Shown: positions 1,090 through 27,400 of the stretch, piece after piece
How the letters are laid out: each line of letters starts with the position of its first letter
How positions within the stretch are numbered: position 1 is the stretch's first letter
NCBI GenBank assembly: GCA_046563655.1
Contig: CM102286.1
Span: 9,424,001 to 9,488,000, forward strand
Source: Yuukianura sp. NJ FZ-2021
Taxonomy: Eukaryota
Reading direction: 5' to 3'
DNA: 64,000 bases
Translations under genes and position numbers: made by a program
Notes under the pieces: model-generated
Seen by the model: the letters and a program-made list of their open reading frames with translations, nothing else
Told to the model about the DNA's origin: nothing
Databases searched by the model: none

Positions 1090-1141
1090 GACGGTTACTG
1101 CCGAAAGCCTGGACCCAGACTAACACTACTTCACATTCAAC

Positions 1142-4100: not shown

Positions 4101-6268
4101 CCTTGGGAATTGGTTGGGATGACAACCTGCCCGAGGACATGGTAGAAAGGTGGACCCACCTTGGCTCATCATTGTCATGTCTTGGTGACATTGCCATTCC
4201 ACGTTGTGTGATTATACCAAATTACCAACGAATGGAATTACATGGATTTTCGGATGCCTCCGAAAGAGCCTATTGTGCCGTGGTCTACCTCAGGACATTT
4301 AACAACAATCTACCAATATGCCGACTTCTGACTTCCAAAACTAAAGTAGCGCCTGTCAAGGCACAGAGCATACCGAGGCTCGAACTTTGTGGTGCTTTGT
4401 TATTATCGAAACTAATTTCTTTTCTTTTGTCTAGTTTGGATCCAAACTGTCACGTCTACTGTTGGACTGACAGTGAAATTACTTTGCGGTGGATCTCGTC
4501 TTCTTCTCGTCGCTGGGTCCCATTCGTGGCCAATCGGGTTTCGCAAATCCAAGAGCTCACACCAGTCGAATCTTGGCATTTCATCCCTGGGACACTCAAC
4601 CCTGCCGATTGCGGAACAAGAGGGATCCCTCTTAATGAGCTCGTCGACAATCAGCTCTGGTGGAACGGACCGGAGTTTCTGTCACAACTTCAATTACCTT
4701 CGTTCTCCAATTCACAAACACTCTCATCTGAGCATCTCAAGGAGGAACGTAAGGTCAAGGTCCTAACTGTTCAAGTGTCTTTTCCCATTCTGAACAGGTA
4801 CTCGTCATTTCTGCAACTCCTTCGTGTCATCGGGTCACTTCTCGTGTTCATGCTTAGAGCTAAGCAGAAGTCGGCACCGATGCTACGATCAGTCGAGTTT
4901 TACCGAATGGCTACTCAGAAGGTCATTCAACTGGCACAACAGGAACACTTCCAAGAGGACGTTCAGTCACTGACTAAAAATGGTAAAGTCAAACAGTCCA
5001 GTTCGTTGCTGTCGCTTTCTCCATTTTTGGATTCGGACGGATCTCTTCGTGTTGGTGGTCGGCTCCACCTGGCATCGCTCCCAGAAGCTGCCAAACACCC
5101 TCTGATCATTCACGGGAAGTCATCAGTCACCAAACTACTCGTCCAGCATTACCACCACAAGCATCATCATGCTGGGAATCGTCTTCTGCTCTCACTTCTC
5201 CGCCAGGACTATTGGATTGTCCACGCACGAGATTTGATCAAATCTGTCATCTCTCGCTGCCTCAGATGTAAGCTGTTGAGACAAAAGACGGCAACACAAC
5301 TCATGGGTACACTGCCTCAACCAAGAGTCACGATGTCACCTACGTTTCATCACACTGGTTTGGACTACGCTGGTCCATTTACACTCCAATCTGTCAAAGG
5401 ACGAGGTCAGAAACAATTTAAAGGCTACTTCTGCATCTTCATTTGCCTCTCCACGAAAGCCGTTCATGTGGAATTCGGAACCGAACTATCCACCGAATCC
5501 TTCCTCGCGACTTTCAAACGGTTTGTGTCACGTCGGGGTAACCCACTACATTTGTATTCTGATTGTGGTACCAATTTTGTAGGTGCTAATAACGAGTTGA
5601 TGGATTTGGTGAACTCTCACCAGTTCAACTCGGAAGTTTCTTCTTACTTTGCAGAGTCACAAACCCACTGGCATTTCAATCCTCCGTCTGCTCCTCATCA
5701 TGGTGGAATCTGGGAGGCAGCAGTACGTTCTGTTAAATTCCATTTGAAGAGGATCATTGGGACCACCACTTTAACGCTTGAGGAATTTGCTACAATTCTT
5801 TGCCAAGCGGAAGCAGCGCTGAACTCCCGACCTCTTCTACCGATGTCCAGTGACACATCCGATTTAGGTGTGATCACACCTGGCCATTTCCTCGTCGGCA
5901 GACCTCTCCTCGCCGCTCCTCAACCAGATCATGCTGATGTCAAGGTCAATCGCCTCTCACGTTGGCAGTTGCAGGAGAAGCTATTCCAAACGTTCTGGAA
6001 GGTCTGGTCTCTCGAATACCTCACATCCCTTCAACAACGAGTCAAGTGGACCAAGAAAACCAACAATTTGACAATCGGAGATCTCGTGGCCATCAAAGAT
6101 GACAATTTACCCCCTCTAAAGTGGAAACTGGCTCGCGTCATCAACGTTCATCCTGGTCCAGACGGACTAGTCAGAGTCGTCACTCTTCGTACGGCCCTCG
6201 GAGAACTTCAACGCCCAATTGTCAAAGTGGTTCCACTTTTATCTAACGACGAGTTATCTACAACTTAA
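1142..6268 (+). CDS. gag-pol: BEL/Pao Gag-Pol polyprotein (Gag with 3 Cys/His knuckles, aspartic protease, RT, RNase H, integrase)
   Basis: KLPKLDLPTFSG Gag motif; CxxC/H knuckles (CVLCSEPHPLFKC, CFNCLGLAHTPKNC, CRVCQKPHHTLLH); protease LLDPG; RT YLPHH...KLRVVFD...YVDD; RNase H GFSDAS...IPRLEL...DS...NPAD; integrase DYAGP/SDCGTNF/GIWE. Domain order is that of BEL/Pao. Confidence 0.97.
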   Translation: MAEVLSLVLKRTAQKHKLAKILRDVSNVDSPPTQFELHKLLDQTEKIEGTVQSIQNEILTYMSNEEDLIPQLEASEQIDDMIVKIHGLINGELAKLDSNTQSGSTLTSAPSVVHPSSKVKLPKLDLPTFSGSYEDWPSFRDQFEASIVNNGGLSGCEKLQYLKSSLKDDALKIVSPFVITNANFQDAWDLCIERYNNTREIAFSLLRKLFNLSKLFQENATSLRNLVDTFDQCVRQLRNLNRNVDQWDDVLVFTIMEKLDPDTKREFAIQLSGTNVPTYKEVKDFLEQHIRGLQSISSASTRQPQKSSDRKKVHAVNTAKCVLCSEPHPLFKCGKFNAMTIAQRMDTAKAQHRCFNCLGLAHTPKNCHSKSRCRVCQKPHHTLLHINNDFVPFANQVNNPNAHVTNPSTSVPTASCNHNSGHGVLLGTAEVYVMDATGAYQTCRVLLDPGAEVSFSTDRCCQRLGLSQTKSNVTINGVGATTVGKAKGKTMLKIKSMCNDFTLSVEALVLSQVTGQLPSFRCGDTWKEWTHLQNLTLADPRYIDPREVDILLGAEVTHRIFTGQTLSSRVDQPAACSSHFGWVVMGPVHTPPVQSYTAHCHTVSLDGAIQRLWELDHVPTRMQLTQEESDAENHFTTHHSRTQDGRYIVPLPFKPNILELGSSRSIALRRLHHTERRLDKLPQHKSEYVKFMTDYLTLGHMEQVPPSEEGERFKDGSIQTYYLPHHFVLKEDSTTTKLRVVFDGSCESNSGLSLNKCLMVGPTIQPDLFTHLIKFRLDPIVLKADITKMYRQFSVLNSDSNFQRILWRPTPDQPIREYRLKTITYGTSSAPFGAIRALNQLDVDEGDHFPLARQAIIERFYVDDYLGGDSSVPKVVETYHQLTRLLARGQLSITKWTSNSPEVLKEIPSHLVEISTQSLAEGSSTKALGVQWTPNSDLLHFTGFRFDQTSVITKRTILSDIAKLFDPLGLLAPFVVSVKVFFQSLWALGIGWDDNLPEDMVERWTHLGSSLSCLGDIAIPRCVIIPNYQRMELHGFSDASERAYCAVVYLRTFNNNLPICRLLTSKTKVAPVKAQSIPRLELCGALLLSKLISFLLSSLDPNCHVYCWTDSEITLRWISSSSRRWVPFVANRVSQIQELTPVESWHFIPGTLNPADCGTRGIPLNELVDNQLWWNGPEFLSQLQLPSFSNSQTLSSEHLKEERKVKVLTVQVSFPILNRYSSFLQLLRVIGSLLVFMLRAKQKSAPMLRSVEFYRMATQKVIQLAQQEHFQEDVQSLTKNGKVKQSSSLLSLSPFLDSDGSLRVGGRLHLASLPEAAKHPLIIHGKSSVTKLLVQHYHHKHHHAGNRLLLSLLRQDYWIVHARDLIKSVISRCLRCKLLRQKTATQLMGTLPQPRVTMSPTFHHTGLDYAGPFTLQSVKGRGQKQFKGYFCIFICLSTKAVHVEFGTELSTESFLATFKRFVSRRGNPLHLYSDCGTNFVGANNELMDLVNSHQFNSEVSSYFAESQTHWHFNPPSAPHHGGIWEAAVRSVKFHLKRIIGTTTLTLEEFATILCQAEAALNSRPLLPMSSDTSDLGVITPGHFLVGRPLLAAPQPDHADVKVNRLSRWQLQEKLFQTFWKVWSLEYLTSLQQRVKWTKKTNNLTIGDLVAIKDDNLPPLKWKLARVINVHPGPDGLVRVVTLRTALGELQRPIVKVVPLLSNDELSTT

Positions 6269-7120: not shown

Positions 7121-7237
7121 CACCGGCTGCCCAAGTTTTATTCACCCCTCACTAAAATCTTTATTTACCTAAACACACTATGCCCCTACTAAACGTCCAA
7201 TGAACAAGAACCTCGCAAATCCAAACGTTTAAGAAAT

Positions 7238-8665
7238 TTGGAACCCAGCCCACAAGAACCTCTACCTAGCCGCAATATCCCAAAACCCAAAAGAACCAAT
7301 ATTATTATAAATATCCACACACCAGCGACTGTCGCCCCCCCTCTAACACCCTCTAAAACGGAATCCTCTGATTTATTTCAGACCCCCAACACGTCTCCTT
7401 CTCAACTTAATACCGATTCTACTGTTTTATCTCACACGTCACTAGAGGAAAGTAAATTTTTTTCAGACAACGATATAACTATAGTGGCTCGCAACCCCCC
7501 ACCCACGCCGATTGCTCCCCAGAGATTATCCCTAGTTTCACTGGATAGAATCCTAGACCAAGATATTTTTCCAACAGTCACAGTTAATCACAAAATTCAC
7601 ATACCCACAACCGAACCGAATACGTCAACAATGGCCACCACCAACGCACTTGTGACCATTCATGAGAAAATTGCTAAGTACACTGCAACATTACTATCTC
7701 GACAAGAGCTCGAGATTTTCCTCAATTTATTTGAGATATGGGCCCAACAAAAGAATCTTAGCGACCCGCAAGCCAAACTACAATTACAAATGGCTATCCC
7801 CCTCAAGGTCGCACAACAGTGGTTCGCGATTAACAAGAATCTTATCAATGACGCAACCACCTCCTGGGCTTTATACAAAACTACATTTTTAGAAGGATGC
7901 CCCACTGAGAATGGCGATGACGACTTGTCCTTCGCCGAAATCATCTCTAAATCTCAAGGTCACAAAGAAAAGGCGACTATTTTCATTCAAAAAATCCGAT
8001 ATTTTTTTGGGACCCAATGGGGGAACTACCCGGAGAAAGAAATTGTTAAAGGCATGGTTCATCAGTTGAACCTGAATACGCGGCGATATATCGAATGCCG
8101 CGGGGTCCCCGAGACATATGCCGAATTAATGCGGCAATTGCAGCAGTACGAAGCAAAAGGCGGGGTTCAAGACATTGATAATATTACCGTTAAAACGGAA
8201 ATACCAACACATCTTATACAAACTGACCAACTGAAAGAACTAGAAGAATCCATTAAAAACATGAGTATCCTCCTCACCCAAACACGTCCCGAACGGCAAC
8301 CCTATTTTCGAGGATTCCAAAGCGAACCCAACTACCCCCCACGGCCTAGAAACCTAAATCCGTGGTTTCGACAAAGTTTTCAACCCCGCTTTTTTACTCC
8401 CCGAACCACTCCACGCACCCAATACAGACTACAAGACTTACCGGATTTACAAGTTAATACGGCTAACGGTGCTCGCACTGTGGCTCGAACCTATCCACAA
8501 GGATCCCGGGGAAATGAACCTCGGCCAAAGTGCGGATATTGTGGACGCTTAGGACACATCACCGCTACATGTTATTTAGCAGCACGCCACCGCAACGGGC
8601 GCCCACCCGTGTTACACACATACTTCAGTGCAAGGACATTGTATGCCCTTGCACTGAGAGTGTGA
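7238..8665 (+). pseudogene. gag: Gypsy-type gag, truncated; no pol follows
   Basis: Pro/Ser/Thr-rich N-terminus, capsid-like helical core (AQQWF...WALYKTTFL) and CCHC knuckle CGYCGRLGHITATC. The likely start ATG (~7180) is out of frame. The last ~18 codons (from 8610) read into unrelated LTR-like DNA. Confidence 0.8.
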
Positions 8666-8697
8666 GTGTGTGTGAGTGGATCTATGAATAAACGACA
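8610..8697 (+). repeat. Truncated LTR-like fragment related to the 387-506 LTR
   Basis: Starts TGTTA; hairpin TCAGTGCAAGG...CCTTGCACTGA centred on CATTGTATG, the same core as in the first LTR; TGAATAAA at 8685-8692. Confidence 0.55.
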
Positions 8698-9190
8698 CAT
8701 TTATTGTGTGGTAAAACTACAACGGAGTGGGGGATGCATCTGATTTTCTCAAAAACCACACCTCCCAAAGAAACATGGTTTAGCCAGTAAAACTGAGATG
8801 GAAAGTTCCCATCTCAGTTCCATGTGCTAAACTAACATAACTAATTTTTTTGTCAAACCGCATTTTGCAAGGCCAGATTTGTTGACAATTTTTGTGTGGT
8901 AAAACTACAACGGAGTGGGGGATGCACTTGACTATGAAACTCAACATCTCCAGAGTCTCAACAAATTACTCAAAAAAAAGTTCAACTTTAGAAGCACTGA
9001 TTCCTGGCTAGAGACACATCAGGGTGGGAATGAGGAGTGTGAAATGCATCTGATTTTCTCAAAAACCACACCTCCCAAAAAACATGGTTTAGCCAGTAAA
9101 ACTGAGATGGAAAGGTCCCATCTCATTTCCACGGGCTAACCTAAGATTACTAATTTTTTGTCAAACAGCATTTTGTATTTGTTGACATTT
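8698..9190 (+). repeat. Left subterminal/TIR repeat block of the Polinton
   Basis: Two copies (the first internally deleted) of a ~310-bp unit that is the imperfect reverse complement of 26650-27250. Confidence 0.85.
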
Positions 9191-9255
9191 TTAACCGCAA
9201 ACTCTTTACTTGTGAGGAAACTTGTGAGGGGAGGTTGGGGTGTCATTTTTTAACA

Positions 9256-9282
9256 TATAAGAGCAACGAAACTGAATTCAGT
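9256..9282 (+). promoter_or_regulatory. Putative TATA + TCAGT initiator for the pPolB gene
   Basis: TATAA at 9256-9260 and TCAGT at 9278-9282, just upstream of ATGs at 9309 and 9327. Confidence 0.4.
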
Positions 9283-9326
9283 TGTTCAAATACCTTGAAC
9301 CAGTACACATGCAGGGGAGGAGAAAA

Positions 9327-12300
9327 ATGTCTGGTTTCAGTTCTAGTAGATTTTACTCTTGTGACAGATGCCAATTGCAAAATTTAGGTGCACAACAATT
9401 CTTACATCACGTCCAAACAACCCATCTGGACATTGAAATACCTGGTAAGCTTAAAACAATTGAGACAGAAATGCGCATTGTAATAAAAATTCTTGTTACA
9501 ATAGGTGAATTGTTAGAAGACATTCAAACTGAACATTATGATACCTCGGGAGCATTCGCTGGAAGACAGTACGGATGTGAAACATGTAACTTGAGGGGTC
9601 TTTCTGAACGAGATTTTATAAGTCACATTCAACAAGTCCATCCAAGTATTCAATTACCAGGTATTCGCAAATTAGCAATTCGAGAGCACAGCATGTTTTA
9701 TTTGTTGTTGGTTATTTTTAGGTCTCATTGCTGGTACAAGTAGTTCACGGTCGGTATCTGTACCACTTCAGCACCAGCCGACGGACGGTTAGGATGTCAT
9801 GATGATGAAATTTTTTTGTAAAAATAATCTTGTCTTTCAATTTAGAACGAGAAGCTGTTGCGTTGGAATTGAAGAATTACAAGAGACGATTTTGTGCGCA
9901 GTGTGGAATAAATTTTGAGTATCCTGGGCAGTTGGATGAGCACCAGTACAATACTCACCCAGAACTGTATCCTTCTGTTCAAAACCAACAGGGCGGAAGT
10001 GCTCCAGAGAATGAAGTACATTTCGATGAATTGAGTGCTTTCCGCGGTACCACTCGTGAGTATACCACAACGTTTGATGAAGATGTGTTTGTGGATGTGG
10101 CTGGTGTCTTTGCTCACTGTTCAGCAACTTTGCGGGAATTGATGAGAAGGACTCATGGGGAAATCGGGTCGTACTTGGTGAGCAGTGTTGCACTAGTAGA
10201 AATGACACGACAAGTTCATGGAAGTAACACTGAACAACAAGTCGAGGATTTTCCATTCCGTTCATTTACGCACATCACCTTAGAACCCAGAATGATTCAA
10301 AATACTCTTCGGCTTATGTCAAATAAAATTGGAGATACAATAGCCGTATTCTTGAGGAAGGGCTCTGGATGGCGTGTTAGTCGATTCAAATGGATTACAT
10401 TCAAATTTTCAGTGTACCGAATGCAGCGTGGAAATGGCTGGATTGCGACGCCTGCGCATATGACAAGGAAAGGATGTGTTGTGAACATTAGAAATTCTGA
10501 TGACCAGTGCTTCAAATATGCAATTTTGTCGGAGTTGTACCCGCTGTATAAGAATGAGTCTGCTCACTGGTATGAAATTACGGACCCCAGAAGCTACGAC
10601 AATTTTCCCCATTCAGTGGACTGGGATTGTATCCAGTTTCCCATGGATTTTGAGCAAATGGACAAGTTTTTACACTTTAACCCTAAACTTTCCGTGAATG
10701 TGTATGGCTATGAAGCTGTGGATGAACTAGATCCAAATTACGCAAAACAGAAAATGAAAGTGTTTCCGTTATATGTTTGTCGTGAAAAAAGACAAAAGCA
10801 CATTGATCTGTTGTTATTAATTGAAGGATGCAACTCGCATTTTGTTCTGCTAAAACAAACGGAGGACAATCCTTCGTTTGGTTTATCTCGTCTGTTGGGA
10901 AGAAATGAGCGCTGCAATGAAAAGTACATTTGCAACTTTTGTCTTCATTTTTGGAAGTCCAAGGCTACACTAGAAAGACATCAACTTTTTAGTTCCGCTG
11001 TGGAACCCCAGGGTGTATGCTTTCCACCAGAATTCAAGTATACATTCAAGCACATTCGTCACACACTTCCTGTGTCGTTTGTCATTTTCTGTGACTTTGA
11101 GTGCATTTTACGACAAGAAAGTGGAACAATGCGGATTGGAACTGTGCTCAATGAACACGTAGACTGTGGCTACTGTTTTGTCGTTGTAGGACCAACCGGT
11201 AGGATGTGCACTGAACCGTTGACGTTTTGTGGTCGAAACGCTGCTCAGCATTTACTAGAAGATTTGGTGAACATAACCGAACAATATTTTATAAAATTGA
11301 AGCAGGATGTTGGACGCGACCCATCATACACTGAAATTGATTTTTATAATATGAGAACAGCTGCCACGAATTGCAACCACTGTGGTGTTCAGTTTCAACA
11401 TGTGAGAGACACAGTAATTGACCACTGTCACCTCACGGGACGTATCAGAGGAGTGAGTTGTAACAACTGCAACATACAACTTCAAGTCACCAAAAAAATC
11501 CCCATCATTTTTCACAATTTTCGAAACTATGACTCTCACTTCATAGTTCAAGCGTTGAAAAGCAACTTGTTCAAACATGTTTTACCTCTACCTACGTCAG
11601 AAGAAAAGTTTACATCTGTGGAGTGTACAACTCATGCCGGAAATGCACTCAAGTTTGTAGACTCTTATCAGTTTATCAGTTCCAGCTTGGCAGACTTGGT
11701 GGAAATGATGGCGAAAAAGGATGTGAACAAGTTCCAAGTGACCAAAAGTGCTTTTCGTCATCATCCAAGAGCAATGACTTTTTTGCTTCAAAAGGGGGTC
11801 TACCCATACGAGTACATGGACAGTTTTGGAAGGATGGATGAGACTGGACCGCCAGGCAAGGAAGCATTCTACAGTGAATTGAGAGGGGAAGGAATTTCCG
11901 ACGAAGATTACGAAAGAGCACTGAAGGTGTGGGAAGAGTTTGGGTGTAGAACCTTGAGAGACTACCACAACCTTTATGTGAAGTTGGATGTTTGCTTGCT
12001 AGCCGATTGCTTCCAGGACTTGAGAGATACGATGATTACAAATTTCCGCTTAGACCCCGCTCATTACATCACCCTTCCAGGAATTGCATACGATGCTGCA
12101 ATGTTGATTGGAAGAGTCGATTATGACTACCTGAAAGTGGATGACATGTACATGTGGTGTGAGAGGGGAATTCGAGGTGGAAACTGTGCCGTAGGACTTC
12201 GATATGCCAAAGCAAACAACCCCTACATGGGAGCTCAATACGACCCCTCGAAACCAACCAGCTACCTGTGCTTGTTGGACGCAAATCTTTTGTACAGTAC

Positions 12301-13651
12301 ATGTTTGAGATGCTACGTTCCGTGGAAGAATTTCCGATGGGATCCAAGCTTCGAGGCACGAACCGCAGATTTGGAGAGTGCAGTTGCAAGAATTTTGAGG
12401 ATGGGAGATGAGGACAGAGAAGGGCTCATTTTGGAAGTGGACTTGGACTATCCGGATGAACTGCATGATCAGCACAATGACTATCCTCTGGCAGTAGAAC
12501 GAGGAATCATTGAATATGAAAACTTGTCCCCCTACACAAAAAACGTGATGGATAATTTGGGTGTTAGTCCGACCTCAGTCAACAAATCCAAACTGATGGG
12601 GACCTTTTACCCAAAGAAAAATTACATTATCCACTATAGACTGCTCAAGTTGTTTTTGCGGTTGGGGCTGAAGATGTCAAAAGTACATCGAGCGCTTCGA
12701 TTCACACAAGCGCCTCTTATGCGTCCCTACATTGAAATGTGCATCGAGAGAAGGAGAAGTGCCACAAATCCTGTTGATGTTAAGTTTTGGAAAGCGATGG
12801 GTAACATTGTGTTTGGGAAACTTTTACAAAATGTTCGAAAGCACAAGAGAATTAACATTGCGCTGACTCGTCAAAAAGTTTTCGAGTATGGAAAAAAACC
12901 AACTGTGAAACGTTTCAAAATTTTACACGAAGAGTGCGTTTTGTTCATGATGAAAAAGCTCTCAGTTTGCTTAAACAAACACATAAGTGCTGGACTAACA
13001 GTTTTGGATGATAGCAAACGAATCATGTACGATTTCTACTACAATGTGATGCAGAAAAAGTATGGAGAGAACATGAGGCTGGTTATGACGGACACGGACA
13101 GCCTCCTCTTGCATATCAAGACTCCAGTTCTCTACCAAGACTTTTACCAAATGACACAAGATCCAGATTGTCGACTTGACACTTCCAACTATGATCCCAA
13201 GCATCCGAAGGTTGGACACTTGTCTTCCCAGCAACATCAAAGAAAGTGCGGCTACTTCAAGGACGAATTTGCCAACTCAATTGTAACTGAGGTGGTTGCA
13301 CTCAAGCCAAAACTGTACTGTGTCCGCTCTCTTGACCAGAACAGCATCGTCTCGGATAGAAAAAAAGCCAAGGGAACGGTGAGAGCAGCGGTGAGAAATG
13401 AACTCCGTTTTGAAGACTATCTTTGTGTTTTGGACGAGTCATCTTCACTCAGCGTAAAAATGACAACAATTCGAAGCATGGACCACCGAGTGTACACTAC
13501 GACCGTATGTAAACAAAGCCTTTCCGCCTTTGAAGACAAGTCTGGCTACTACATTTCTCCAATTGAGTTTCTCCGATTTGGTCACTACCAAATCCCAATG
13601 TACCAACAACAAGAAGAAGAACAACAGGAACAAATGCAACAACAAGTTTAA
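9327..13651 (+). CDS. polB: Protein-primed family B DNA polymerase with a spliced N-terminal triple C2H2 zinc-finger leader; predicted exons 9327-9444, 9505-9660, 9722-9787, 9846-13651 (~1381 aa)
   Basis: ExoI DFE, ExoII HNFRNYD, ExoIII YVKLD; Pol motifs DANLLY, KAMGNIVFGK, TDTDS; endonuclease VII-like insert (CNHC...DHCHLTG...CNNCN). The large ORF has no ATG at its start, and three GT-AG phase-1 introns join the upstream exons in frame. Confidence 0.92.
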
Positions 13652-13742
13652 GTCCTAATATAAGCCAATTTAATAAATATTTAAATTTTAGTTTGAATTT
13701 GAACGTTTGACCAATAGCAAGTGTTTAAAAGTTGAATTAGAG

Positions 13743-14399
13743 ATGAGTTTTCATTTCGGGCTGAGTCATCCGTTTGTGATGGTTTGTGCAGGAGCCACGC
13801 AATCTGGAAAGAGTACATTAATTCATCAATTAATTTTGAGAAAGGATGAAGTGATTGAGCCTAAAATTGAGCGAGTAATCTACTGCTACGGCGAAGATTT
13901 GCCTTCGATTGCAAGTTCTGTGCATGAAGCTTTCAAGGACAAGGAGGACGTTTGTGTGGAATTTCAAAAGGGTATGGAGGTGGACGTGGTCGAGGGGAAC
14001 CGAGTTCCCACTCTCGTAATTCTCGACGACTTTATGGAAGAGATTGCAATGTCCAAGGAAGTTTGCACAATGGTGACACGAGGGAGTCATCATAGATCAA
14101 TGTCTCTAATCATTACAATGCAAAACTTTTTCTACAAAAACTGCAGAAACTTGACGTTAAACAGCAAATACTTGGCGTTATTTCGAAATCCAAGAGACTC
14201 TACAATTGTTCAGTTTCTGGGAAGACAGATGAACAATGGAAAAAGTCATCCCGTCCTTGAAGCTGCTTACGAGGATGCAACCAAAAACAAGCCAAACAGT
14301 TACTTGTTTTTGGACTTGAGTCAACAGCAGGATGACGAACACCGTTTCCGTTCAAATCTTTTTCCCGACCCGTCATGCATCGTCTATTTGAAAAAATAG
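13743..14399 (+). CDS. Polinton packaging ATPase (A32/FtsK-like)
   Basis: Walker A GATQSGKST, Walker B LVILDD, and RGSHH...ITMQN motif. Confidence 0.93.
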   Translation: MSFHFGLSHPFVMVCAGATQSGKSTLIHQLILRKDEVIEPKIERVIYCYGEDLPSIASSVHEAFKDKEDVCVEFQKGMEVDVVEGNRVPTLVILDDFMEEIAMSKEVCTMVTRGSHHRSMSLIITMQNFFYKNCRNLTLNSKYLALFRNPRDSTIVQFLGRQMNNGKSHPVLEAAYEDATKNKPNSYLFLDLSQQQDDEHRFRSNLFPDPSCIVYLKK

Positions 14400-14960: not shown

Positions 14961-15893
14961 TTAGGAATGAAGAACTTTCTGGAGTTCCGGATCATAAAAT
15001 ACACCAAATATGAACTCTCCTTTCAAATCCTGAAGCTGATAGCTGATTGGAGTAGTATAAAAAACTTTGGAAACCTTGAACTGCTCTCGATTCCAAGACC
15101 TAGAGTAGCCTTTTTCAAAGATTTTCTTGATTTTACTAATTAGAACAGTGTCCCCAACGGAAAATTTCGTCTTTTTACGACGTTTCACGACTCTGTCATT
15201 GTAGAGATTTAGAAAAACGTCAGTTTTCGTTTCTTCGTTGACTTGATTTGGTGTGCATTTGATGGATGAGTGGTATGAATTGTTGTAATTCTCAACGATC
15301 GCAGCCAGGACGTCGTAAAATTTTTCTGTGCCCTTGTATGTCATGTAACGAGCAATTCTATTCATAAGAGTCTGATTGAATCTCTCTACAATGACCGCCT
15401 TCAACTCGGATCCTGTACTGAACATGTGGATTCCATGCTGTTTGAGTAGCTTCTCCAGAGTTTTGTTGATGAATTCTTTGCCCCGGTCTACTTGTAAGTA
15501 TTTGCAAGGTCCTCGCTTCTCAATAATCTTTGCCAAAGCATTCCTTACAGTGGGTGCATTTTTGTTTTTCAGAGGGATTGCATCCGCAACTTTACTAAAC
15601 CCATTGATGCAAGTCAACAAGAACTTGTATCCGTTGTTTGAGTCGCTATACTTGCTTACGTCAATCAAATCTGCAACCATTTGTTGCTTGAGTCCAGGAA
15701 TGAATACTCTTCTCCTAGGATATCTTTTTCGAGCGCGTTTGTGCAGAGTATAAGCAGGGATGGAAGAGAGTGACCGCTCGACATCCTTTGAATGATTTTT
15801 CAAACTTTTTTTAACTTGATGTGCACCCGAAAAGCTATGTTGGACATTTGGATTTACGTAATTCTCTTTGATTTGTTTGTCTAGCTCTGACAT
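14961..15893 (-). CDS. int: Retroviral-like (rve) DDE integrase of the Polinton
   Basis: YTLHK motif; catalytic ADLID / VDRGKEF / VERFN; YNNSYHSSI; C-terminal F.VGD.V.IS...FEKGY...W. No chromodomain visible. Confidence 0.95.
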   Translation of the reverse strand: MSELDKQIKENYVNPNVQHSFSGAHQVKKSLKNHSKDVERSLSSIPAYTLHKRARKRYPRRRVFIPGLKQQMVADLIDVSKYSDSNNGYKFLLTCINGFSKVADAIPLKNKNAPTVRNALAKIIEKRGPCKYLQVDRGKEFINKTLEKLLKQHGIHMFSTGSELKAVIVERFNQTLMNRIARYMTYKGTEKFYDVLAAIVENYNNSYHSSIKCTPNQVNEETKTDVFLNLYNDRVVKRRKKTKFSVGDTVLISKIKKIFEKGYSRSWNREQFKVSKVFYTTPISYQLQDLKGEFIFGVFYDPELQKVLHS

Positions 15894-15995
15894 ATTTACG
15901 ACTAAGTCAAAAAACCTCAAGCGTCATGGTCTTATTTGTGGGGCAGCTTCTTGAAGGAAAAGGTTCATTGACGCCCAACTCTTTGGCTGGTCAAC

Positions 15996-17464: not shown

Positions 17465-17730
17465 TTAAGGATTCGTGCTCTGCGATTCAGTTTATTCGTG
17501 CTTTTGCTTCTTTTGGATCAACACAAACTGTTGAGAAAAGATTTTTTGGATTCGTGCCAACCATACTTGTGGATTCGAGCTTACAAATCTACTCATCCCT
17601 GCCTACGTTTTTTTTTGGATTTGAGGTACGTATATTTAGATTAAAAGGATTCGTGCTAGCAATTTAAAAGGATTCGTGCTTTACATATTTATGGATTCGT
17701 GCTTTCATTTAAAAGGATTCGTGCTTTGAC
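17465..17730 (+). repeat. Cluster of ~8 GGATTCGTGCT motifs upstream of the capsid module
   Basis: Motif or 1-mismatch variants near 17469, 17494, 17548, 17571, 17647, 17670, 17693 and 17716; the last four have ~23-bp periodicity. Confidence 0.8.
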
Positions 17731-17736
17731 GGCAAG

Positions 17737-18675
17737 ATGATGACTGCAACTGGTTCGAGTACATCCAACTCTTTCTACGTAACACTTCAATCGAATGCTT
17801 CGATGGACTATTTTCCAGGCAATCTAATTTGTGATTTCAAGAATAAATTGGCAAGTTCCATCAGTCTGCCTGGAGATCAATTGGAGGTGGCCCTGACCGA
17901 CTTGAGCTATACTTATGGAAACGCGTTTGTCGGAGCAGGAAGAACAATTTTTACGAAACGGGTCCAGTTGCCACCACCATCTTTCGTCGCTGCCCCAACA
18001 GGTGCAGAGACAGTCGCTGCTGCTGTACATGATTTGGATATGAATGACAAGAGCATTTCGTTTCGAGAAAGACAGCGTCGCTCTGCTAATCAGCGTGCAT
18101 TTTCACCTCCAAAAGTTTTGGAAATTCCAATGAAAACACACCGACGTTTGATGACTGACACTCAACTGTTGAGTTTTCTGCACGATATGCTACCCAACTC
18201 TCAGTGTCGAATCGAATCTAGCATTTTCAAGTATCGCATACCCTTGAAGGAGGGAACGACAATCAAGTTTTCTCCACAAGTAGCCGACATTCTGGGGATG
18301 GGTGGAGGAGAATTGCAGATTGCGAACCAAATCGTCCGAGGAGCCCTACCTGCAGATGGATTCTCTCTATACGAAGGAGAAGGCGCTTATCCAGTCTTTT
18401 TGAATGCTGGACAAACAAAACTTTTCGTCTACTGCAACCTAATCCGGCCTCAATTCATTGGAGATGCTCTTGCACCAATTCTTCGAGTGGTCAACTATGA
18501 GGGAAAATTTCGAAAACAACACTCTCATGAATTCACTCATGCACACTACATGCAGCTGGCCGTCTCTCAATTTGATACGATTCATTTGTATATAATGAAC
18601 GAGGCGGGGGAGAGAATGCCATTCGAGTTTGGTAACCTCACCGCTACACTTCGTTTTCGTGAACGCAAGACATGA
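17737..18675 (+). CDS. Polinton minor capsid (penton-like) protein
   Basis: N-terminal FYVTL.SN.S...FP.N...F...L...EVAL and C-terminal LFVYCNLI..Q..GD...P.LR...Y......FDTI......G...PF......TL.F motifs. Confidence 0.85.
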   Translation: MMTATGSSTSNSFYVTLQSNASMDYFPGNLICDFKNKLASSISLPGDQLEVALTDLSYTYGNAFVGAGRTIFTKRVQLPPPSFVAAPTGAETVAAAVHDLDMNDKSISFRERQRRSANQRAFSPPKVLEIPMKTHRRLMTDTQLLSFLHDMLPNSQCRIESSIFKYRIPLKEGTTIKFSPQVADILGMGGGELQIANQIVRGALPADGFSLYEGEGAYPVFLNAGQTKLFVYCNLIRPQFIGDALAPILRVVNYEGKFRKQHSHEFTHAHYMQLAVSQFDTIHLYIMNEAGERMPFEFGNLTATLRFRERKT

Positions 18676-19282
18676 GGTCATCGGCTGGACTCTCGTCCCT
18701 ACCTTACAATTGTGCTGGAGACTTTCCTGCAGATGCATTTTTTTCACAAAATCAATTTGGTAGTGGGTTTTCCCCAACTACAATCTACTTTAGTGGGGTT
18801 CGTCGTCAAAAAGGTTAAAAAAAGCAAATAAAAATTTAAAAATGTAATAATTTTGAAAATGCTGGTTTTTGGAGTTTGGTCGTATCAATTATTCAATTTT
18901 ATGTGACCCGTCAGGGGCTGGTCTTGGAGGAGTTTTTGGTGCAATTGCACGGCAACTTTTTCCATTTCTTAAGCAGTACGTACTGCCACATGCGGCGGAT
19001 GCCGTAGGAGGTGTCGCCTCGGACTTAATTTTGAACAAAAGACCAATCAAGGAATCTCTGAAATCGCACGGCTGGGAAGCACTTAAGAGTATGGGTAGGG
19101 ATGTTATGAATCAGACGGGTTCGGGCATTCGAGGTGTGAGGTCAAGGAAGCGACGCATCAAACGACGAGGAAAACCAGCATACGGTCCAAAGCGAAAAAA
19201 GTCAAGGAAGGTTAGGAGCAAAAACAAGCGGCGTCGTACAAAGAGTCGTAAGAGAGTCGGTGGTACGAGGTACATTTTCTAA
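18672..19282 (+). CDS. Polinton core-like basic protein, spliced (exons 18672-18813 and 18915-19282; ~169 aa)
   Basis: ATG overlaps the penton stop (ATGA). A 101-bp AT-rich GT-AG intron restores F.G..RQKG/AGLGG.F...R..P.LK; three QxGxG motifs and an Arg/Lys-rich tail. Confidence 0.78.
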
Positions 19283-19283
19283 A

Positions 19284-20633
19284 ATGCCACGCGTAAAAAC
19301 AACAAAAGGGTACGGTGGAACATCATCAGGGCCGGCTGCGCCATACACTTTTATCCGTTCAGAAACAAATTTGTTTGAAGAACCTGCCTTTGATGTCAGC
19401 CTTTTGTCTACAATTCAAACCGAATATCATCCAATTACATCTCTGGCGGACAGTTTGGCACCCGTCGAATTTTATATTCAAGGAAATGATACACATTTTT
19501 TGGACTTGTCCGAGACAAAGTTGTACGTCAAGGCAAGAATTGTTGCTGAAAATGGATCTGCTCTGACGGCGGAGGAACTTGTCGCACCTGCAAACAATTT
19601 TCTCCATACCCTGTTTCAGCAACTCAGCGTTTATTTCAACGAGACTCTCATCACACCATCCTCAAATCAATACGCTTACCGAAGTTACCTTGAAACTCTA
19701 CTCGGCTACAACAAGGAATTCAAAAAGTCGCAAGCACAGGGTTCTCTATACTACAAGGATAAGGATCCCAGCAACAAGAGCACAACAGTGGAGGATGGTT
19801 ATAAAACTCGATTCGATTTGACAAAGGGAAGCAAAAGTGTGGAATTGATTGGGCGTCCATTTGGAGACATTTTCGCACAAAACAAATTCCTAATTCCTGG
19901 CATTGATGTTCGCATCAGCTTCTTACGATCCTCTCCTGCATTTTGTTTAATTGCTGACAAAGCAGATGGAAGGTATCAAGTTCAAATTTCTGAGGCAAGA
20001 ATCATTGTTCAAAAGCATACTCTTCTTCCCTCACTCGTGACGTCAATCCTCAAAGAGTGGGAGCTGGGGCGATCAATTACATATCCTCTTCGTCGGGTGG
20101 AACTCAAAACCTACACGATTGGACCTGGGAGTTTGCAAAGCATAAATGAAAATCTGCTGAGTGGGCTCCTTCCAGACAGAATAATTGTTGGACTTTTGGA
20201 ATCGGAAGACTACATGGGAACAATCACCACGAATCCCTACAACTTTTCACACTTTGACTTCAACCATCTCAACGTAACTGTCAAAGGAGATCAAAGTTCA
20301 TCTCTGGCTATGCATTTGGATTGGGAAGGGGATCAGTACATACAGCTCTACAACAATCTTTTTTATGGACTTGGAATGTCCAACGAAGATGTCGGAATTG
20401 ACATGACCAGAGCCGAGTACAAGAAACAACCTTTGATGATTTACAACTTGCGTCATGTCCGCGAAGGCTTTGCACCTCCAAAACATGGAAATGTGAAAAT
20501 TGAGTTGAAATTCAAAAAGGCTGTGGCCAAGGCTATTACTGTGATGGTCTATGCCGAATACCAGGCAGTTCTCTACATTGACTCGAGCAAGAACGTCTTT
20601 TGGAAAGATTACAGCACCACCAGCACCGGTTAG
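19284..20633 (+). CDS. Polinton major capsid protein (double jelly-roll type)
   Basis: SE..LF, YHP....P.EF.I.G....LDL..T.L, NNFLH.LF.Q, Y.YR.Y.ETLL.Y, LPDRI...G motifs; ~449 aa; located before the protease. Confidence 0.9.
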   Translation: MPRVKTTKGYGGTSSGPAAPYTFIRSETNLFEEPAFDVSLLSTIQTEYHPITSLADSLAPVEFYIQGNDTHFLDLSETKLYVKARIVAENGSALTAEELVAPANNFLHTLFQQLSVYFNETLITPSSNQYAYRSYLETLLGYNKEFKKSQAQGSLYYKDKDPSNKSTTVEDGYKTRFDLTKGSKSVELIGRPFGDIFAQNKFLIPGIDVRISFLRSSPAFCLIADKADGRYQVQISEARIIVQKHTLLPSLVTSILKEWELGRSITYPLRRVELKTYTIGPGSLQSINENLLSGLLPDRIIVGLLESEDYMGTITTNPYNFSHFDFNHLNVTVKGDQSSSLAMHLDWEGDQYIQLYNNLFYGLGMSNEDVGIDMTRAEYKKQPLMIYNLRHVREGFAPPKHGNVKIELKFKKAVAKAITVMVYAEYQAVLYIDSSKNVFWKDYSTTSTG

Positions 20634-20638
20634 AGACG

Positions 20639-21166
20639 ATGGAGACGCGACAAATTTTCACCTACCTGTCATCATTTTTGAAGCCAACGCAGGCCACGTT
20701 TCGAGTCATTCCGTGTGACTATTTGGATCACCTTGAGGTTGAACGTTATCCTCTGCTGCTAGTTGTCAATTCGGATCCATCCACATCTCCTGGAAGTCAT
20801 TGGTTGGCCCTGTTTCGAGAAAATTCCAAAGCTCCCCTCAAATTCATCGACTCGTACGGGATGGGAGTAGAGTTTTACGACAAGGCCTTTTCCAACTTTG
20901 CATCTCGGCTCCAGACTTCAATTGTGGAAAACATCCGGACTCTTCAAAGCCCAAACTCTCAAGTGTGTGGAGAATATGCAATCTATTTTCTATACAAGCT
21001 TTACCACACTTGCTGTCTAATGTCCATCTACTGCAACTTCCATTCCAATTCCAAAAGAAATGATATGCTAGTTAGACAATTTGTAAGAAAAAAGCTTAGG
21101 AGACTCTCAAAAAACTCTTCTCCCTCCTCATCTAACCTTAATCAATGCTGTACTCCATTCAGTTAA
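20639..21166 (+). CDS. Adenain-like cysteine protease
   Basis: N.D.....G.HW, F.DSYG, Q.....CG.Y motifs (His-Asp-Gln-Cys). Confidence 0.92.
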   Translation: METRQIFTYLSSFLKPTQATFRVIPCDYLDHLEVERYPLLLVVNSDPSTSPGSHWLALFRENSKAPLKFIDSYGMGVEFYDKAFSNFASRLQTSIVENIRTLQSPNSQVCGEYAIYFLYKLYHTCCLMSIYCNFHSNSKRNDMLVRQFVRKKLRRLSKNSSPSSSNLNQCCTPFS

Positions 21167-21370
21167 AAAAAACAAATAAAATTTCCAAAATCCAATTCTC
21201 TTTTTCGTTCCGAATCAAGTAAAAAGATTAAAATTTTATTTTAACCACCAAGTGAAAAGAGAGAGAGGGAGTTTTAGTCGTGTGGGACGTGTTCCAGCTC
21301 CTGGTTGAAGGTTTCAATGCCTCTGAGACAAGTCTCCAGAGTCGTCTTGAGGGTTGCCACTTGTTCCGAC

Positions 21371-22162
21371 TAGGGGTCGCAAAGTCGAACGAAATCTGAA
21401 AGTCGACTTTCGACTCTGGGAATTGAGCTTCGACTCTAGAGTCGACTTTGGAGTCGACTTTTAACCTTCAATAGAATGCCCCGAAAGAAACCTAAAAATC
21501 GCATTCCAAATCCGCATGATTTTCAAAAATACACGGATTTCGGATTTCTGCGGACCAAATATGGTTTCTGATCCAGATTTTTCGGGCAAACACTCATGAA
21601 TAATTTTTTTTTTTTTTAAATAGTTTTTTTTAGGTTTTTTTTTTTTGTTTTTGTAGCAACAAAATAGTGGGGTTTAAGCACCGAAGCGGAAATGTTGATT
21701 CAAGACTATTCAAATATCTGCACGAAAACTGCGAAAACTTAAGAAATTCTTTTTGTTCAAATCTATTTTTTTTTCTAAAAATACACATTTCGAATTTCGA
21801 TATTTTGCATATGGTTTCTAGAATTTGTCTTTGGTGCGAACTTAATTCGCAGGTTCATTAAAAATTTCCACAAGTTCCGTCAATGCTTTAAACTAAACTC
21901 AAATCCGGATTCAAAGTCTTCAAACCCGGATATATACATCATATTTCGAATACACCCAAAAGGAAAATAGCTAATTTGTTTTCAATTAAATGATTTACAG
22001 TGCTTAGGCATTAAGTTGCATGTCGCTTTCCTAGGCTCAAATTACCTCATTTTTTAAGGCAAAGTCGAATTTCGAAGGTTGTAAAGTCGACTTTCGACTT
22101 TCCAAAAAATGGTCAAGAAATCGACTTCGACTTTACTCGAAAAGTCGACTTTGCGACCCCTA
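21371..22162 (+). mobile_element. Non-autonomous hAT-type DNA transposon (MITE), copy 1
   Basis: TIR TAGGGGTCGCAAAGTCGA, 8-bp TSD GTTCCGAC, many subterminal AGTCGA(CT) motifs, no coding capacity. Confidence 0.92.
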
Positions 22163-22345
22163 GTTCCGACCCTCCTCCAGTTGTCCTCAAGTAAAAGGTT
22201 GAGAGTCGACGCAAAACGTACGGGACGGAGCTGACCTCAAAGTTGACCGTGTGCTTGTTTCGGCGAAAGTAGACCCAGTGGTACATCTTCCCCTTGTACA
22301 TGGTCTCCCTGCTGAAAACCGACAACCGCTTGTCCTCATCAAAAG

Positions 22346-23132
22346 TAGGGGTCGCAAAGTCGACTTTTCGAGTAAAGTCGAAGTCGATTTCTTGACCATT
22401 TTTTGGAAAGTCGAAAGTCGACTTTACAACCTTCGAAATTCGACTTTGCCTTAAAAAATGAGGTAATTTGAGCCTAGGAAAGCGACATGCAACTTAATGC
22501 CTAAGCACTGTAAATCATTTAATTGAAAACAAATTAGCTATTTTCCTTTTGGGTGTATTCGAAATATGATGTATATATCCGGGTTTGAAGACTTTGAATC
22601 CGGATTTGAGTTTAGTTTAAAGCATTGACGGAACTTGTGGAAATTTTTAATGAACCTGCGAATTAAGTTCGCACCAAAGACAAATTCTAGAAACCATATG
22701 CAACATATCGAAATTCGAAATGTGTATTTTTAGAAAAAAAAATAGATTTGAACAAAAAGAATTTCTTAAGTTTTCGCAGTTTTCGTGCAGATATTTGAAT
22801 AGTTTTGAATCAACATTTCCGCTTCGGTGCTTAAACCCCACTATTTTGTTGCTACAAAAACAAAAAAAAAACCTAAAAAAAACTATTTAAAAAAAAAAAT
22901 TATTCATGAGTGTTTGCCCGAAAAATCTGTATCAGAAACCATATTTGGTCCGCAGAAATCCGAAATCCGTGTATTTTTGAAAATCATGCGGATTTGGAAT
23001 GTGATTTTTAGGTTTCTTTCGGGGCATTCTATTGAAGGTTAAAAGTCGACTCCAAAGTCGACTCTAGAGTCGAAGCTCAATTCCCAGAGTCGAAAGTCGA
23101 CTTTCAGATTTCGTTCGACTTTGCGACCCCTA
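22346..23132 (-). mobile_element. Non-autonomous hAT-type DNA transposon (MITE), copy 2, inverted
   Basis: Reverse complement of copy 1; same TIRs; its own 8-bp TSD ATCAAAAG. Confidence 0.92.
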
Positions 23133-23441
23133 ATCAAAAGCCGCATCGCTGGGAGCAAACATTCTCACGTCCAAAGATTCGTCGTCTGAAACAAAGAAGA
23201 AAAAAAAATTTTTTTAAACTTTTGAAACATTGCAACTTTCCAAATCAAATTTGTACGGAGAGAGAGTTTTGTTTTGACTTACTTTGATCGTTTGACGCCA
23301 TTGGTGCCAACAAAACAAGTAGTAAGAGTAGTGTTGAGATGGTGAAGGTTCGAGTAGAAATGAAGTGGAACATGAAAGAGAAGAAGGGTAAAGTAGAAGA
23401 AGAAAAACGATTTGGGAGTGTGGGAAACTGCTGACGTTGCT

Positions 23442-23974
23442 TCAGTTGGAGCTTGGAATTTCTTCACTCTTACTAGCATCAACTTCGTCTTGGTTCTTGG
23501 AATCCCCGTCATCCACTGAGAACGTTGACAAGTCGTTGAGGTCGTCAGAAGTTGAACCATGCTCGGAACATAGCCAATCATAAAATTCCACGTCATCTAC
23601 TCCTTCCCCAAACCTCCCAACTCCCCAAACATCTTCTTTCCATTTGTCTTCCTTCATTTCCTTCACCCGATGAAGAATCTTACTTTTTGCAGACTCACCA
23701 GCGTACCTCAAATCCCTCTGTTTGTTCAAGTAGTCAATGTTCGCCTCTCCCACAATTTTTTTGAATTCTGGAAGGTTTTTGGACTGTTTCCGGCATGAAT
23801 GTAGCACTGAATTAGTTTTTCAACGATGAAAGGAGTGTCCCTCATGAGGATTTCCGCATGCCAGCCATCTCTCTTGAATGTGACCTTCTTCTGCCAGCTG
23901 AATTCGTCTCGTGTGTACCAACACTTCAACTCCTTCCCTCCCTTCTCACTTGGGTAGTATCGCCCGGATTCCAT
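23442..23974 (-). pseudogene. Orphan Polinton gene with one frameshift and an acidic C-terminus
   Basis: Overlapping ORFs 23726-23974 (MESGRYY...) and 23442-23807 join with a single frameshift at ~23760-23810. Confidence 0.55.
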
Positions 23975-24055
23975 AATTTTATTCTTCTTAAATTTGAACA
24001 TCTTTGGTCGAGTGATAAAGTAGAACTGACAAATTTTTTCTCCAAAATCACTGTC

Positions 24056-25719
24056 CTAATCCGAAAAGTACAAGTTGTGGAGTTCCGGATAATATCGTTG
24101 CCGCTTTCCATGTATTCGACTCCTCCTCTCCTCCTTATCATACTCTGAAATCAGCCTCCTCACCTTTTTCACAAATTCTTGTTTTTTCCGACCCTCTGGG
24201 AAAGTGAAATGGCATACGGATCTTGGATTTCGTGTTGGATGTACACTTGCCATGCCCAAGTTCCGTCCAGCATAAATTATGTCCGTCCACAGCCGATCAT
24301 CTTCGTCATTGTTAACAAACGAGGTTCCGGAAATATCTTCCAACCTCAAAATCTTTAAACTCTTGCATTTTTTTACAATGTCAAGAAACACATATGCATT
24401 CACTCCGCATGTGTCGTCGTAACGGTCGCCAAGTTTAAAAAGGCAGAGTGTGCCTAAATTAGGTAAAGCAGCCACCAAATTGACGAGATGTTCTCTTTCC
24501 ATCCGACAACGGCCGAGCACCAACTTCCTCAAACAAGGTGGTACAACCAAGTTTAGTGTTGCTGTGAAATATGGATTCCTGATTCCAAACCCTGGATTAA
24601 ACGCCAAACGACTTGTACCTTCAAAATGAAGTGACAACTTCAACAAGGACGTACAATCCTTCACCCAATCCAAATTTCCAAGGAGTCCATGGTCATAATC
24701 CAGATATTCAAACCGGATCCTCTTCAGTGTGGATATTGAATTTTTCACAATTGTAGCTGCTTCCTGAAGATTCAAGGCTTCCAGCCCATGCTTGAGTTCT
24801 TCGAAAGAATTCGGAAGGGTGAAGAAGATCCTCCAAAGTGGGTGAATTAACCTGCATGTGGCTGGGTACATCGCCATGGTCCACATGAAACTTTCAGAAT
24901 TTTAAGATTTTGAAACTTTTCCAGCTTTGTATTTGAAACAAGTTGCGTAATTTCCTCTTCAACAAACTTTTTCACACCACCGCATTCGATTGTTAGCACT
25001 TGGAGGGTGTCGGAATGTAAATTTAGGAATTTGATCACATCACGGAGGTTGTCCACATCCATCAGTTTTCCCTCAAAACTAAACTGTTGAAGTGTAGAAA
25101 TTTTGAAAGGGGACGATGTAACAGTCCTGAATATTGTTGGTATATGCGGTTGGTCAGTGTGACTCTCCCCACGAATCTTCAAACACTTCAACTCCTTGAA
25201 TCGCTTAAACACAGTTTCGTATGCAAAGTTTTCAGTCTCCTCAAAGAGATTCTCATACTGGTGGTTGTAGTTGAAAATGATGGATGTTAGCGACGTACAA
25301 CGTGCCAGAAATTTTCGAATAAGTGGGGCATGTCGCACTTCAAAAAATTCAATTTCACGAATCTTGTCGATGTGCTTCAGCTCCAGAAAATCAGAAACAT
25401 CCTCCATCTGGGGATTATGTGGAAATACTCGAAGCGTAAGAGAACGAATCCTTAGGTTCCAGTGAGGGCGGATCAAGTCAATTCTCATACCAGCTCCAAC
25501 AATATCAACATCGAAGGCGGCTACACCATCGACGACATTTTTCAATTTGCGAGATGTTTCCCTCAGATTACACAAGTCCTTGTTGTCCAGTTTCTTCATA
25601 ATCAGTCCCAAAATCTGTTGCAAAACAGTCAATATGTCACAAGGAGCAAATTCTTATTAGTATTATTCATCATTTTCAAAACTGAAAAGTAATCTTACCT
25701 CATTTGGTAAACCCTCCAT
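24056..25719 (-). pseudogene. F-box / LRR-like cargo protein (exon 1 25719-25699, intron 25698-25615; one frameshift at ~24890)
   Basis: Splicing gives MEGLPNEILGLIMKKLDNKDLCNLRETSRKLKNVVD, an F-box consensus. Followed by LxxLxL repeats (CTSLTSI, LKCLKI, LKILKV, LRKLVL, LPNLGTLCL, CKSLKILRL). Confidence 0.8.
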
Positions 25720-26649: not shown

Positions 26650-27400
26650 TTCGTTTAGCCCGTGGAACTGAGATGGGACCTTTTCATCTCGGTTCTACTT
26701 GCTAAACCATGTTTTTTGGGAGGTGTGGTTTTTGAGAAAATCAGATGCATCCCCCAGTCCTCATTCCCACCCTGATGTGTCTCTAGCCAAGAAGCAGTGC
26801 TTCTAAAGCTGAACTTTTTTTTTTGAGAAGTTTTTCGAGACTCTGGAGATGTTGAGTTTCATAGTCAAGTGCATCCCCATTCCGTTGTAGTTTTACCACA
26901 CAAAAAATGTCAACAAATCTGGCCTTGCAAAATGCGGCTTGACAAAAAAATTAGTAATCTTAGTTTAGCCCGTGGAACTGAGATGGGACCTTTCCATCTC
27001 AGTTTTTCTGTCTAAACCATGTTTTTTTGCCAGGTGTGGTTTTTGAGAAAATCATATGCATCCCCCAGTCCTCATTCCCACCCTGATGTGTCTCTAGCCA
27101 AGAAGCAGTGCTTCTAAAGCTGAACTTTTTTTTTGAGAAGTTTGTCGAGACTCTGGAGATGTTGGGTTTCATAGTCAAGTGCATCCCCGACTCCGTTGTA
27201 GTTTTACCACACAAAAAATGTCAACAAATCTGGCCTTGCAAAATGCGGTCGTATACTCTTCTCCACTGGGAGAAGGAATGACATCATCATTTTCTCATGC
27301 ACTCTGAAAGCGCAAGTGGGTCATGTTTACATTTTTTTGACTAAAGTTCAAGTTTGTTTTTGTTATTGTTTTTACTAGTAGTCATGCGATGGTTACTACT
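26650..27400 (-). repeat. Right TIR/subterminal block of the Polinton
   Basis: Two ~310-bp tandem units (26653, 26963) inverted relative to 8698-9190, plus ~150 bp of unique terminus ending in ACTACT. Confidence 0.88.

Follow-up and report, generated by a model that had tools for sequence, protein, structure and literature searches.

A candidate SCF-adaptor gene of the F-box/LRR type in one clade of Polintons of Yuukianura sp.

The stretch of DNA analysed herein (64,000 nucleotides of contig CM102286.1 of Yuukianura sp. NJ FZ-2021; hereafter the window) contains a Polinton that carries a spliced gene for a predicted F-box/leucine-rich repeat (LRR) protein, and homologues of this gene are carried by other Polintons of the same genome, which fall into four families (A to D, the window element belonging to family A). 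We conclude with high confidence that the gene is a stable and selected accessory gene of one Polinton clade. As judged from its domains, the product is probably a working adaptor of SCF ubiquitin ligases, and the overall explanation that we favour on balance is that this adaptor would remove a conserved host protein. The evidence for these conclusions comes from essentially one genome.

Gene set of the window Polinton and structure of its F-box/LRR gene

By its gene content the element in the window is classed as a Polinton/Maverick. It extends from the remnant of a left terminal inverted repeat (8697..9192), for which no outer end was found, to a right terminal inverted repeat (26650..27400), which contains internal 311-bp repeats and has its terminus, ACTACT, at 27400, where it abuts a 183-bp satellite. 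On the forward strand, a small ORF with two zinc fingers (9276..9743; C2H2 Pfam match below the cut-off, with a homologue in family B) is located 5' of the protein-primed DNA polymerase B (pPolB; 9809..13651, an open frame of 1280 aa; PF03175, 25.9 bits against a cut-off of 25.8), which is followed by the packaging ATPase (13692..14399; matches to Adeno_IVa2 and Pox_A32, both below the cut-off). A retrovirus-like integrase is encoded on the reverse strand (14961..15923; PF00665, 44.1 bits). Again on the forward strand are found a probable minor capsid protein (17713..18675), proposed from its position and its conservation across the families and giving no Pfam match, the major capsid protein (19140..20633; 93 homologues) and the adenovirus-type maturation protease (20582..21166; PF00770, E = 0.0027, below the cut-off). 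Within this set pPolB and integrase thus exceed the Pfam cut-offs, ATPase and protease stay under them, and the major capsid was assigned from homologues and position. Its best named homologue is a Folsomia candida 'F54H12.2-like' protein (44%), a name that we take to denote a Polinton capsid; such a relative is in keeping with a springtail-like host.

The copy in the window is damaged at its left end, in the small ORF neighbouring the F-box/LRR gene and by two insertions. Since no terminus was found at the left arm, the element is incomplete on that side, and with the right terminus only, no target duplication can be read. The two insertions are opposed copies of about 0.8 kb (21368-22165 and 22343-23135), 177 nt apart on the 3' side of the protease gene, which are present in none of the sibling elements and are skipped in the sibling alignments; together they form a large inverted repeat, with short GTCGAC-rich repeats near the outer ends. 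A second small ORF on the reverse strand, split by insertion, remains in pieces at 21277..22493 (profile matches at 22116-22493, E = 7e-21, and at 21277-21369, E = 7e-05); its homologue in families C and D is the ORF on the 3' side of the F-box gene. The downstream small ORF at 23442..24055, also on the reverse strand, is broken near 23816 in the window and forms an open frame of 194 aa in the siblings on C5 and C10; it has a 49% homologue in family B, and gave no match in Pfam and none in the Atlas at 0.9. A PC4-type identity of the downstream small ORFs was considered, was supported by neither Pfam nor Atlas, and is not claimed. In family A the F-box gene has two small ORFs on its 3' side, of the A/B type (23442-24055) and of the C/D type (22116-22493), which may be distant homologues of each other (cross-match E = 0.07-0.5); from the C5 and C10 siblings most of the C/D-type ORF is gone.

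On the right side of the element, the Polinton terminus is joined directly, with no base between, by 79.5 copies of the 183-bp satellite, after which come 42.5 copies of a 487-bp satellite; the two arrays extend over 27401-62659. Derivation of the 183-bp satellite from the inverted repeat was rejected after comparison with four sibling end regions, which gave no match between the satellite and the inverted repeats. On the left side, a BEL/Pao polyprotein ORF (1124-6268; 1714 aa, intact) is followed by a gag-like ORF (7193-8692 region), and the segment 8609-8692, which adjoins the Polinton at its truncated left arm, matches two places on C3 located 7.4 kb apart, in the manner of LTR ends.

The F-box/LRR gene is encoded on the reverse strand between the inverted-repeat arms at 8697-9192 and 26650-27249, as had been proposed in the first-pass annotation of this DNA. 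It begins with ATG at 25719 in a micro-exon of 7 codons (25699..25719) that ends in LPxE and is directly followed by a phase-0 donor; an 84-nt GT-AG intron within the F-box (25615..25698, GT at 25698 and AG at 25615) leads to exon 2, which begins at 25614 in phase 0, and the predicted splice from the micro-exon to the long exon is as annotated before. The first piece of exon 2 (24850..25614) carries the remaining F-box and the N-terminal LRRs and is 89% identical to sibling residues 1-255, while the second piece (24056..24849), past a frame break, carries the C-terminal LRRs and a helical cap and is 91% identical to sibling residues 254-519. After alignment of the window with the C10 sibling, the break in the assembled sequence was placed at about 24850, from which the other frame runs to a stop at 24056; a single break had been predicted correctly, but at about 24890, that is, about 40 nt away. 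As assembled, the window copy is a broken member of its family. The uninterrupted siblings consist of 7 + 519 = 526 codons, where a protein of about 525 aa had been reconstructed from the window copy.

The presence of an F-box was confirmed by Pfam, PF00646 matching the exon-2 frame without the micro-exon, from which the LPxE part is derived, with an E value of 8.2e-06 and 26 bits against a cut-off of 20.5. Three families (A, C and D) pass the Pfam threshold for the F-box, and family B gave no F-box match on exon 2 alone. For the LRR-like repeats of the first annotation, support was obtained from the predicted solenoid and from fold matches to COI1 and TIR1, but not from Pfam, in which no LRR match above the cut-off was found for the window copy (best E = 0.027) or for the other families (best 26.2 of 27, family C). 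The AlphaFold model of an uninterrupted sibling (mean pLDDT 73.9, pTM 0.76) predicts a strand-helix LRR solenoid with 12 LxxLxL-type strands and a helical cap, the F-box part of the model being weak (pLDDT 44-50 over residues 1-30). The top PDB fold matches include COI1, TIR1, LRRC8 and NLRC4 (E = 1e-6 to 2e-5, TM 0.3-0.4), and these Foldseek matches of the model are generic LRR matches that name no substrate. The top Atlas matches are F-box clusters (0.96-0.97). The combination of F-box and predicted LRR solenoid corresponds to the F-box/LRR (FBXL-type) architecture.

Position of the gene in four Polinton families and selection on it

Two sibling elements, located at C5:769-785k and C10:1088-1105k, share about 92% identity with the window and carry the F-box/LRR gene with an uninterrupted 519-codon exon 2. 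Neither of the outcomes that would have spoken against the first-pass annotation, lack of an F-box match or a gene missing from all siblings and bearing an insertion signature of its own, was observed. The inverted repeats of the two siblings measure 1046 and 1640 bp, respectively; with AGTAGT...ACTACT ends and differing 6-bp target duplications, the siblings are separate complete insertions. Between them dS is 0.005-0.045 in most genes and 0.21 in pPolB, and the outer inverted repeats have also diverged, which suggests recombination between elements.

When the genome was searched with the sibling protein, 24 matches were obtained, which correspond to 21 loci (25 of 25 candidates scored); a family-C query led to the same locus set. 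Twenty of these loci are of the Polinton type (5 in family A, 2 in B, 6 in C and 7 in D) and one is cellular. The F-box/LRR proteins of the four families are 23-36% identical to each other, and the gene is kept in one slot, 3' of the protease and/or capsid gene and on the opposite strand, in 18 of the 20 Polinton-type loci, the other two being decayed fragments with no protease or capsid gene nearby. In families A to D the 3' neighbour of the F-box gene is always a small ORF in the same orientation. In the C10 element about 150 nt separate the inverted repeat from the F-box start, and about 35 nt separate it from the left-end ORF preceding pPolB, so that the F-box and left-end units share upstream DNA.

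The long exon is uninterrupted in 10 of the 20 Polinton-type loci and broken in the other 10, and four family-A elements (C17:157k, C10:996k, C10:271k and C4:8350k) are without the F-box gene, two of them having one deletion junction in common. These losses indicate that the gene is not needed in cis, and are consistent with a factor that acts in trans. A further element of 4.9 kb (C4:10601800-10606660) has the same inverted-repeat arms and no core genes; it carries ORFs of 214 aa, found again at C10:270k, and 151 aa, and is adjoined by an ORF of 919 aa, the start of which is presumably similar to superfamily-3 helicases (parvovirus NS1-like).

The capsids of the gene-bearing families are 55-87% identical to the window capsid, out of a total of 96 capsid matches in the genome. 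For the sister capsid clades, 20 further loci, all from capsid families of at least 42% identity, were opened over 2.5-5 kb past the capsid, and no F-box/LRR homologue was found within that distance; the genome-wide searches with F-box/LRR proteins also gave none elsewhere.

The presence of the gene and its dN/dS in other Polinton copies, proposed as a check in the first-pass annotation, were followed over the 20 Polinton-type loci for presence and in pairs from families A, C and D for dN/dS, with purifying selection as the outcome. The dN/dS ratio was 0.25-0.27 in family A (pieces of the window copy against C10 and C5), and 0.13-0.15 and 0.16-0.18 for diverged pairs of families C and D, respectively, the bootstrap intervals of the diverged pairs being all below 0.41; near-identical pairs (0.42-1.31) gave intervals spanning 1 and are uninformative. 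For the core genes we obtained 0.04-0.08 (capsid, with 0.04-0.05 for the major capsid gene of the window element) and 0.08-0.11 (pPolB plus integrase), and the F-box/LRR gene evolves faster than these genes. Both the F-box and the LRR parts are under purifying selection, with pN of 0.079 and pS of 0.40 in the F-box part, 0.071 and 0.33 at the exposed LRR strand positions and 0.075 and 0.31 in the rest of the protein, the buried LRR positions being the most constrained (pN 0.017). By identity counts, residues 361-420 form the best-conserved block in five of the six family comparisons. Within families, neither diversifying selection nor an arms-race signature was detected on the predicted substrate (concave) face of the LRRs.

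The broken window copy and the siblings without the gene are what one would expect of a neutral passenger, or of an independent insertion into the window element, but such an origin is contradicted by the use of one slot in four families of 23-36% identity, by dN/dS far below 1 and by the retention of the splice sites, and its probability appears negligible. The agreement in selection between F-box and LRR parts, as expected for a complete adaptor, also speaks against a decoy, which would bind Skp1 or the substrate of the host homologue without ubiquitination, and thereby stabilise a host protein or dampen SCF activity. A decoy could compete for one substrate with the single cellular homologue, which has the same C-terminal motifs, and the tryptophan of the third F-box helix, a consensus position, is kept in families C and D and missing from A and B, as a decoy would allow. 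Weighing both sides, we consider a decoy unlikely.

Origin of the F-box/LRR gene

The gene tree has the form ((A,B),(C,D)), with support of 100/99 for A+B and 97/98 for C+D together with P0003. The same form was obtained for the capsid tree (A+B 100, C+D 99; whole clade 91 SH-aLRT), in which the clade of families A to D excludes the families without the F-box gene; the agreement between the two trees is limited to the branching of the four families. A common origin of all F-box/LRR genes of the Polintons, with support of 80/82 without and 65/61 with the mixture model, is weakly supported, the alternative being two captures, one for A+B and one for C+D. Both gene trees were built without the window copy and the other broken copies, and included, together with the cellular homologue, 9 (gene tree) or 6 (second, mixture-model tree) of the 23 host long-exon genes extracted; they are unrooted, and do not fix the direction of transfer for the cellular homologue. 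The comparison with host F-box genes, suggested in the earlier annotation, placed all 10 host genes of the gene tree outside the Polinton families.

The host genome contains at least 140 F-box matches. The LPxE|GT donor, kept in all of the 12 Polinton copies tested, precedes the F-box exon in 17 of the 29 host F-box loci examined, against 1 of 29 in the opposite-strand control, and this intron position common to Polinton and host F-box genes indicates a host origin and a capture as DNA. A second intron directly after the F-box is present in family D and in none of families A to C. The cellular homologue at C3:12417k is 19-22% identical to the Polinton proteins, has a second intron, is free of Polinton core genes over a distance of 10 kb, and has relatives of 48-60% in other datasets; among the 51 loci tested with the family profile, it gave the highest host score (72 and 53 bits for its two exons, the next locus having 34). 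The shared intron and this one cellular homologue point to an old capture of the gene at the DNA level. The earlier proposal of a captured host gene therefore stands as to the host-type F-box/LRR gene in a Polinton, but has to be revised from loose cargo to an old accessory gene fixed in a clade. Dicer-type ORFs (Helicase_C, PAZ; C3:12408800-12418900) are located within about 4.6 kb upstream of the cellular homologue on the same strand; this neighbourhood may be due to chance, and leaves open a link to RNA silencing while showing nothing by itself.

The same first annotation had also offered the element as a vehicle for spreading F-box genes. As such it would ferry genes that serve the host and seed the host expansion, or the cellular homologue would be a domesticated Polinton copy; the large number of host F-box matches with the exon plan in common and the unrooted state of the trees would agree with this. 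The data did not bear it out: just one of the 21 homologous loci is cellular, and that one is 19-22% identical to the Polinton proteins and has relatives of 48-60% in other datasets, no host gene of the tree nests in a Polinton family, and both copies stranded without core genes have decayed. A vehicle role is, in our judgement, very unlikely.

Outside this genome, word-index protein searches with a single protein and with an 8-sequence alignment gave no match at E = 0.001 among 8000 candidates each, a PDB sequence search gave three uninformative matches (best E = 0.02), and no relative was found in scans of viral contigs with the alignment, P0006 and the capsid as queries. A full HMMER search gave five weak matches, all of them unnamed environmental proteins, and as far as can be told from sequence the actual relatives are one host gene plus these five proteins. 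In addition, a frameshifted relative with 31% identity to families C and D is present on L176, a metagenome contig of 2.2 kb. Behind this relative the C/D-type small ORF is weakly matched (E = 0.009, 4647 frames compared), and the cassette of F-box gene and small ORF probably exists outside the Yuukianura sp. genome.

That the next gene in families A to D, and probably in L176, is always a co-oriented small ORF would suit an adaptor that degrades a protein of the element itself, either as a timing switch or as an antidote to a harmful product such as that of the linked small ORF; in the window copy both the F-box gene and the small ORF are broken. F-box antidotes exist in nematodes, and toxin cargo can also be cited. 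The latter is described for nematode Mavericks in the main text of 10.1101/2022.07.12.499685. Against a self-directed adaptor, elements without the F-box gene retain pieces of the C/D-type small ORF, no homologue is detectable in the sister capsid clades, and the cellular homologue implies an originally cellular substrate. We regard this explanation as distinctly unlikely.

Predicted function and comparison with known systems

SCF ligases use the F-box for attachment to Skp1 and the LRRs for choice of the substrate; the host genome contains four Skp1 genes. According to the explanation that we favour, removal of a conserved host protein, the gene would have been captured as DNA, with its first intron, from the expanded F-box/LRR family of the host before the split of families A to D, and then inherited together with the capsid gene in the slot between protease and right inverted repeat, where it is read inward. 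Its spliced transcript would be expressed from a repeat-proximal promoter together with the replication genes, the shared upstream DNA suggesting that the F-box and left-end units may be co-expressed as early genes. The F-box would then bind Skp1/Cul1 of the host, and the LRR solenoid a conserved host protein, possibly a silencing, DNA-damage or cell-cycle factor, the ubiquitination of which would help replication or integration of the element. Acting in trans, the protein could be lost from single copies. A wider version, in which a whole clade of animal Polintons, in this host and in at least one other dataset, would retain near the end of the element an early gene with an intron, the product of which would be an SCF adaptor for the destruction of a conserved host silencing or DNA-damage factor, is offered as a tentative proposal.

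If true, Polintons would possess a dedicated counter-defence gene, reached in parallel with the right-hand (RH) genes of atadenoviruses, and the counter-defence reading would be evidence for selection of these elements as infecting viruses. The proteins bound by the adaptor would name the host pathway that limits Polintons. In a more general sense, intron-containing Polinton 'cargo' can become a fixed and co-evolving gene, not passing freight. Viral F-box proteins in general are well known, which makes the finding less surprising; in the titles and abstract openings of the open-access Polinton/Maverick papers surveyed, no F-box gene in a Polinton was found.

Adenoviruses and Polintons are related, and the closest analogy by position and function is provided by the RH F-box genes of atadenoviruses, for which homology is not claimed. 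As described in the text of PMC7551158, these genes occupy a site close to the right end of a linear dsDNA genome of middle size and are not part of the capsid/protease block, and their products are proposed to engage SCF. RH0 is, however, a protein of 205 aa (PMC7551158), whereas the Polinton protein has 526 aa, a predicted LRR solenoid and a host-type intron, and no adenoviral protein was among the 50 viral fold matches listed. On the viral side, the top fold matches come from giant viruses, entomopoxviruses and a nudivirus; they are LRR or F-box/LRR proteins, among them F-box/LRR proteins of giant viruses and LRR proteins of entomopoxviruses, and their sequence identity is 10-15%. Cellular FBXL-type adaptors such as COI1 and TIR1 resemble the Polinton protein in having an N-terminal F-box plus an LRR solenoid, also at an identity of 10-15%.

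Among the mobile elements, nematode Mavericks carry wasp/msft-1 proteases and krma kinases as cargo, and here too a host-type gene with an intron is found beside the terminal inverted repeat (10.1101/2022.07.12.499685, main text). This cargo is poorly conserved and is swapped between elements and species (10.1101/2022.07.12.499685), unlike the F-box/LRR gene, which is fixed in four families, occupies the same slot in 18 of 20 loci and follows the capsid in its tree; the term 'F-box' has no occurrence in the main text of that paper. Adintoviruses are animal Polintons with conserved accessory genes that modulate the host, namely Oncoid, Bcl2, IAP, PLA2X and gasdermin-like genes (PMC8502044, main text). 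In the main text of PMC8502044, 'F-box' and 'leucine' have no occurrence. The small zinc-finger ORF that adintoviruses carry 5' of PolB, as described in the main text of PMC8502044, is also present in the window Polinton.
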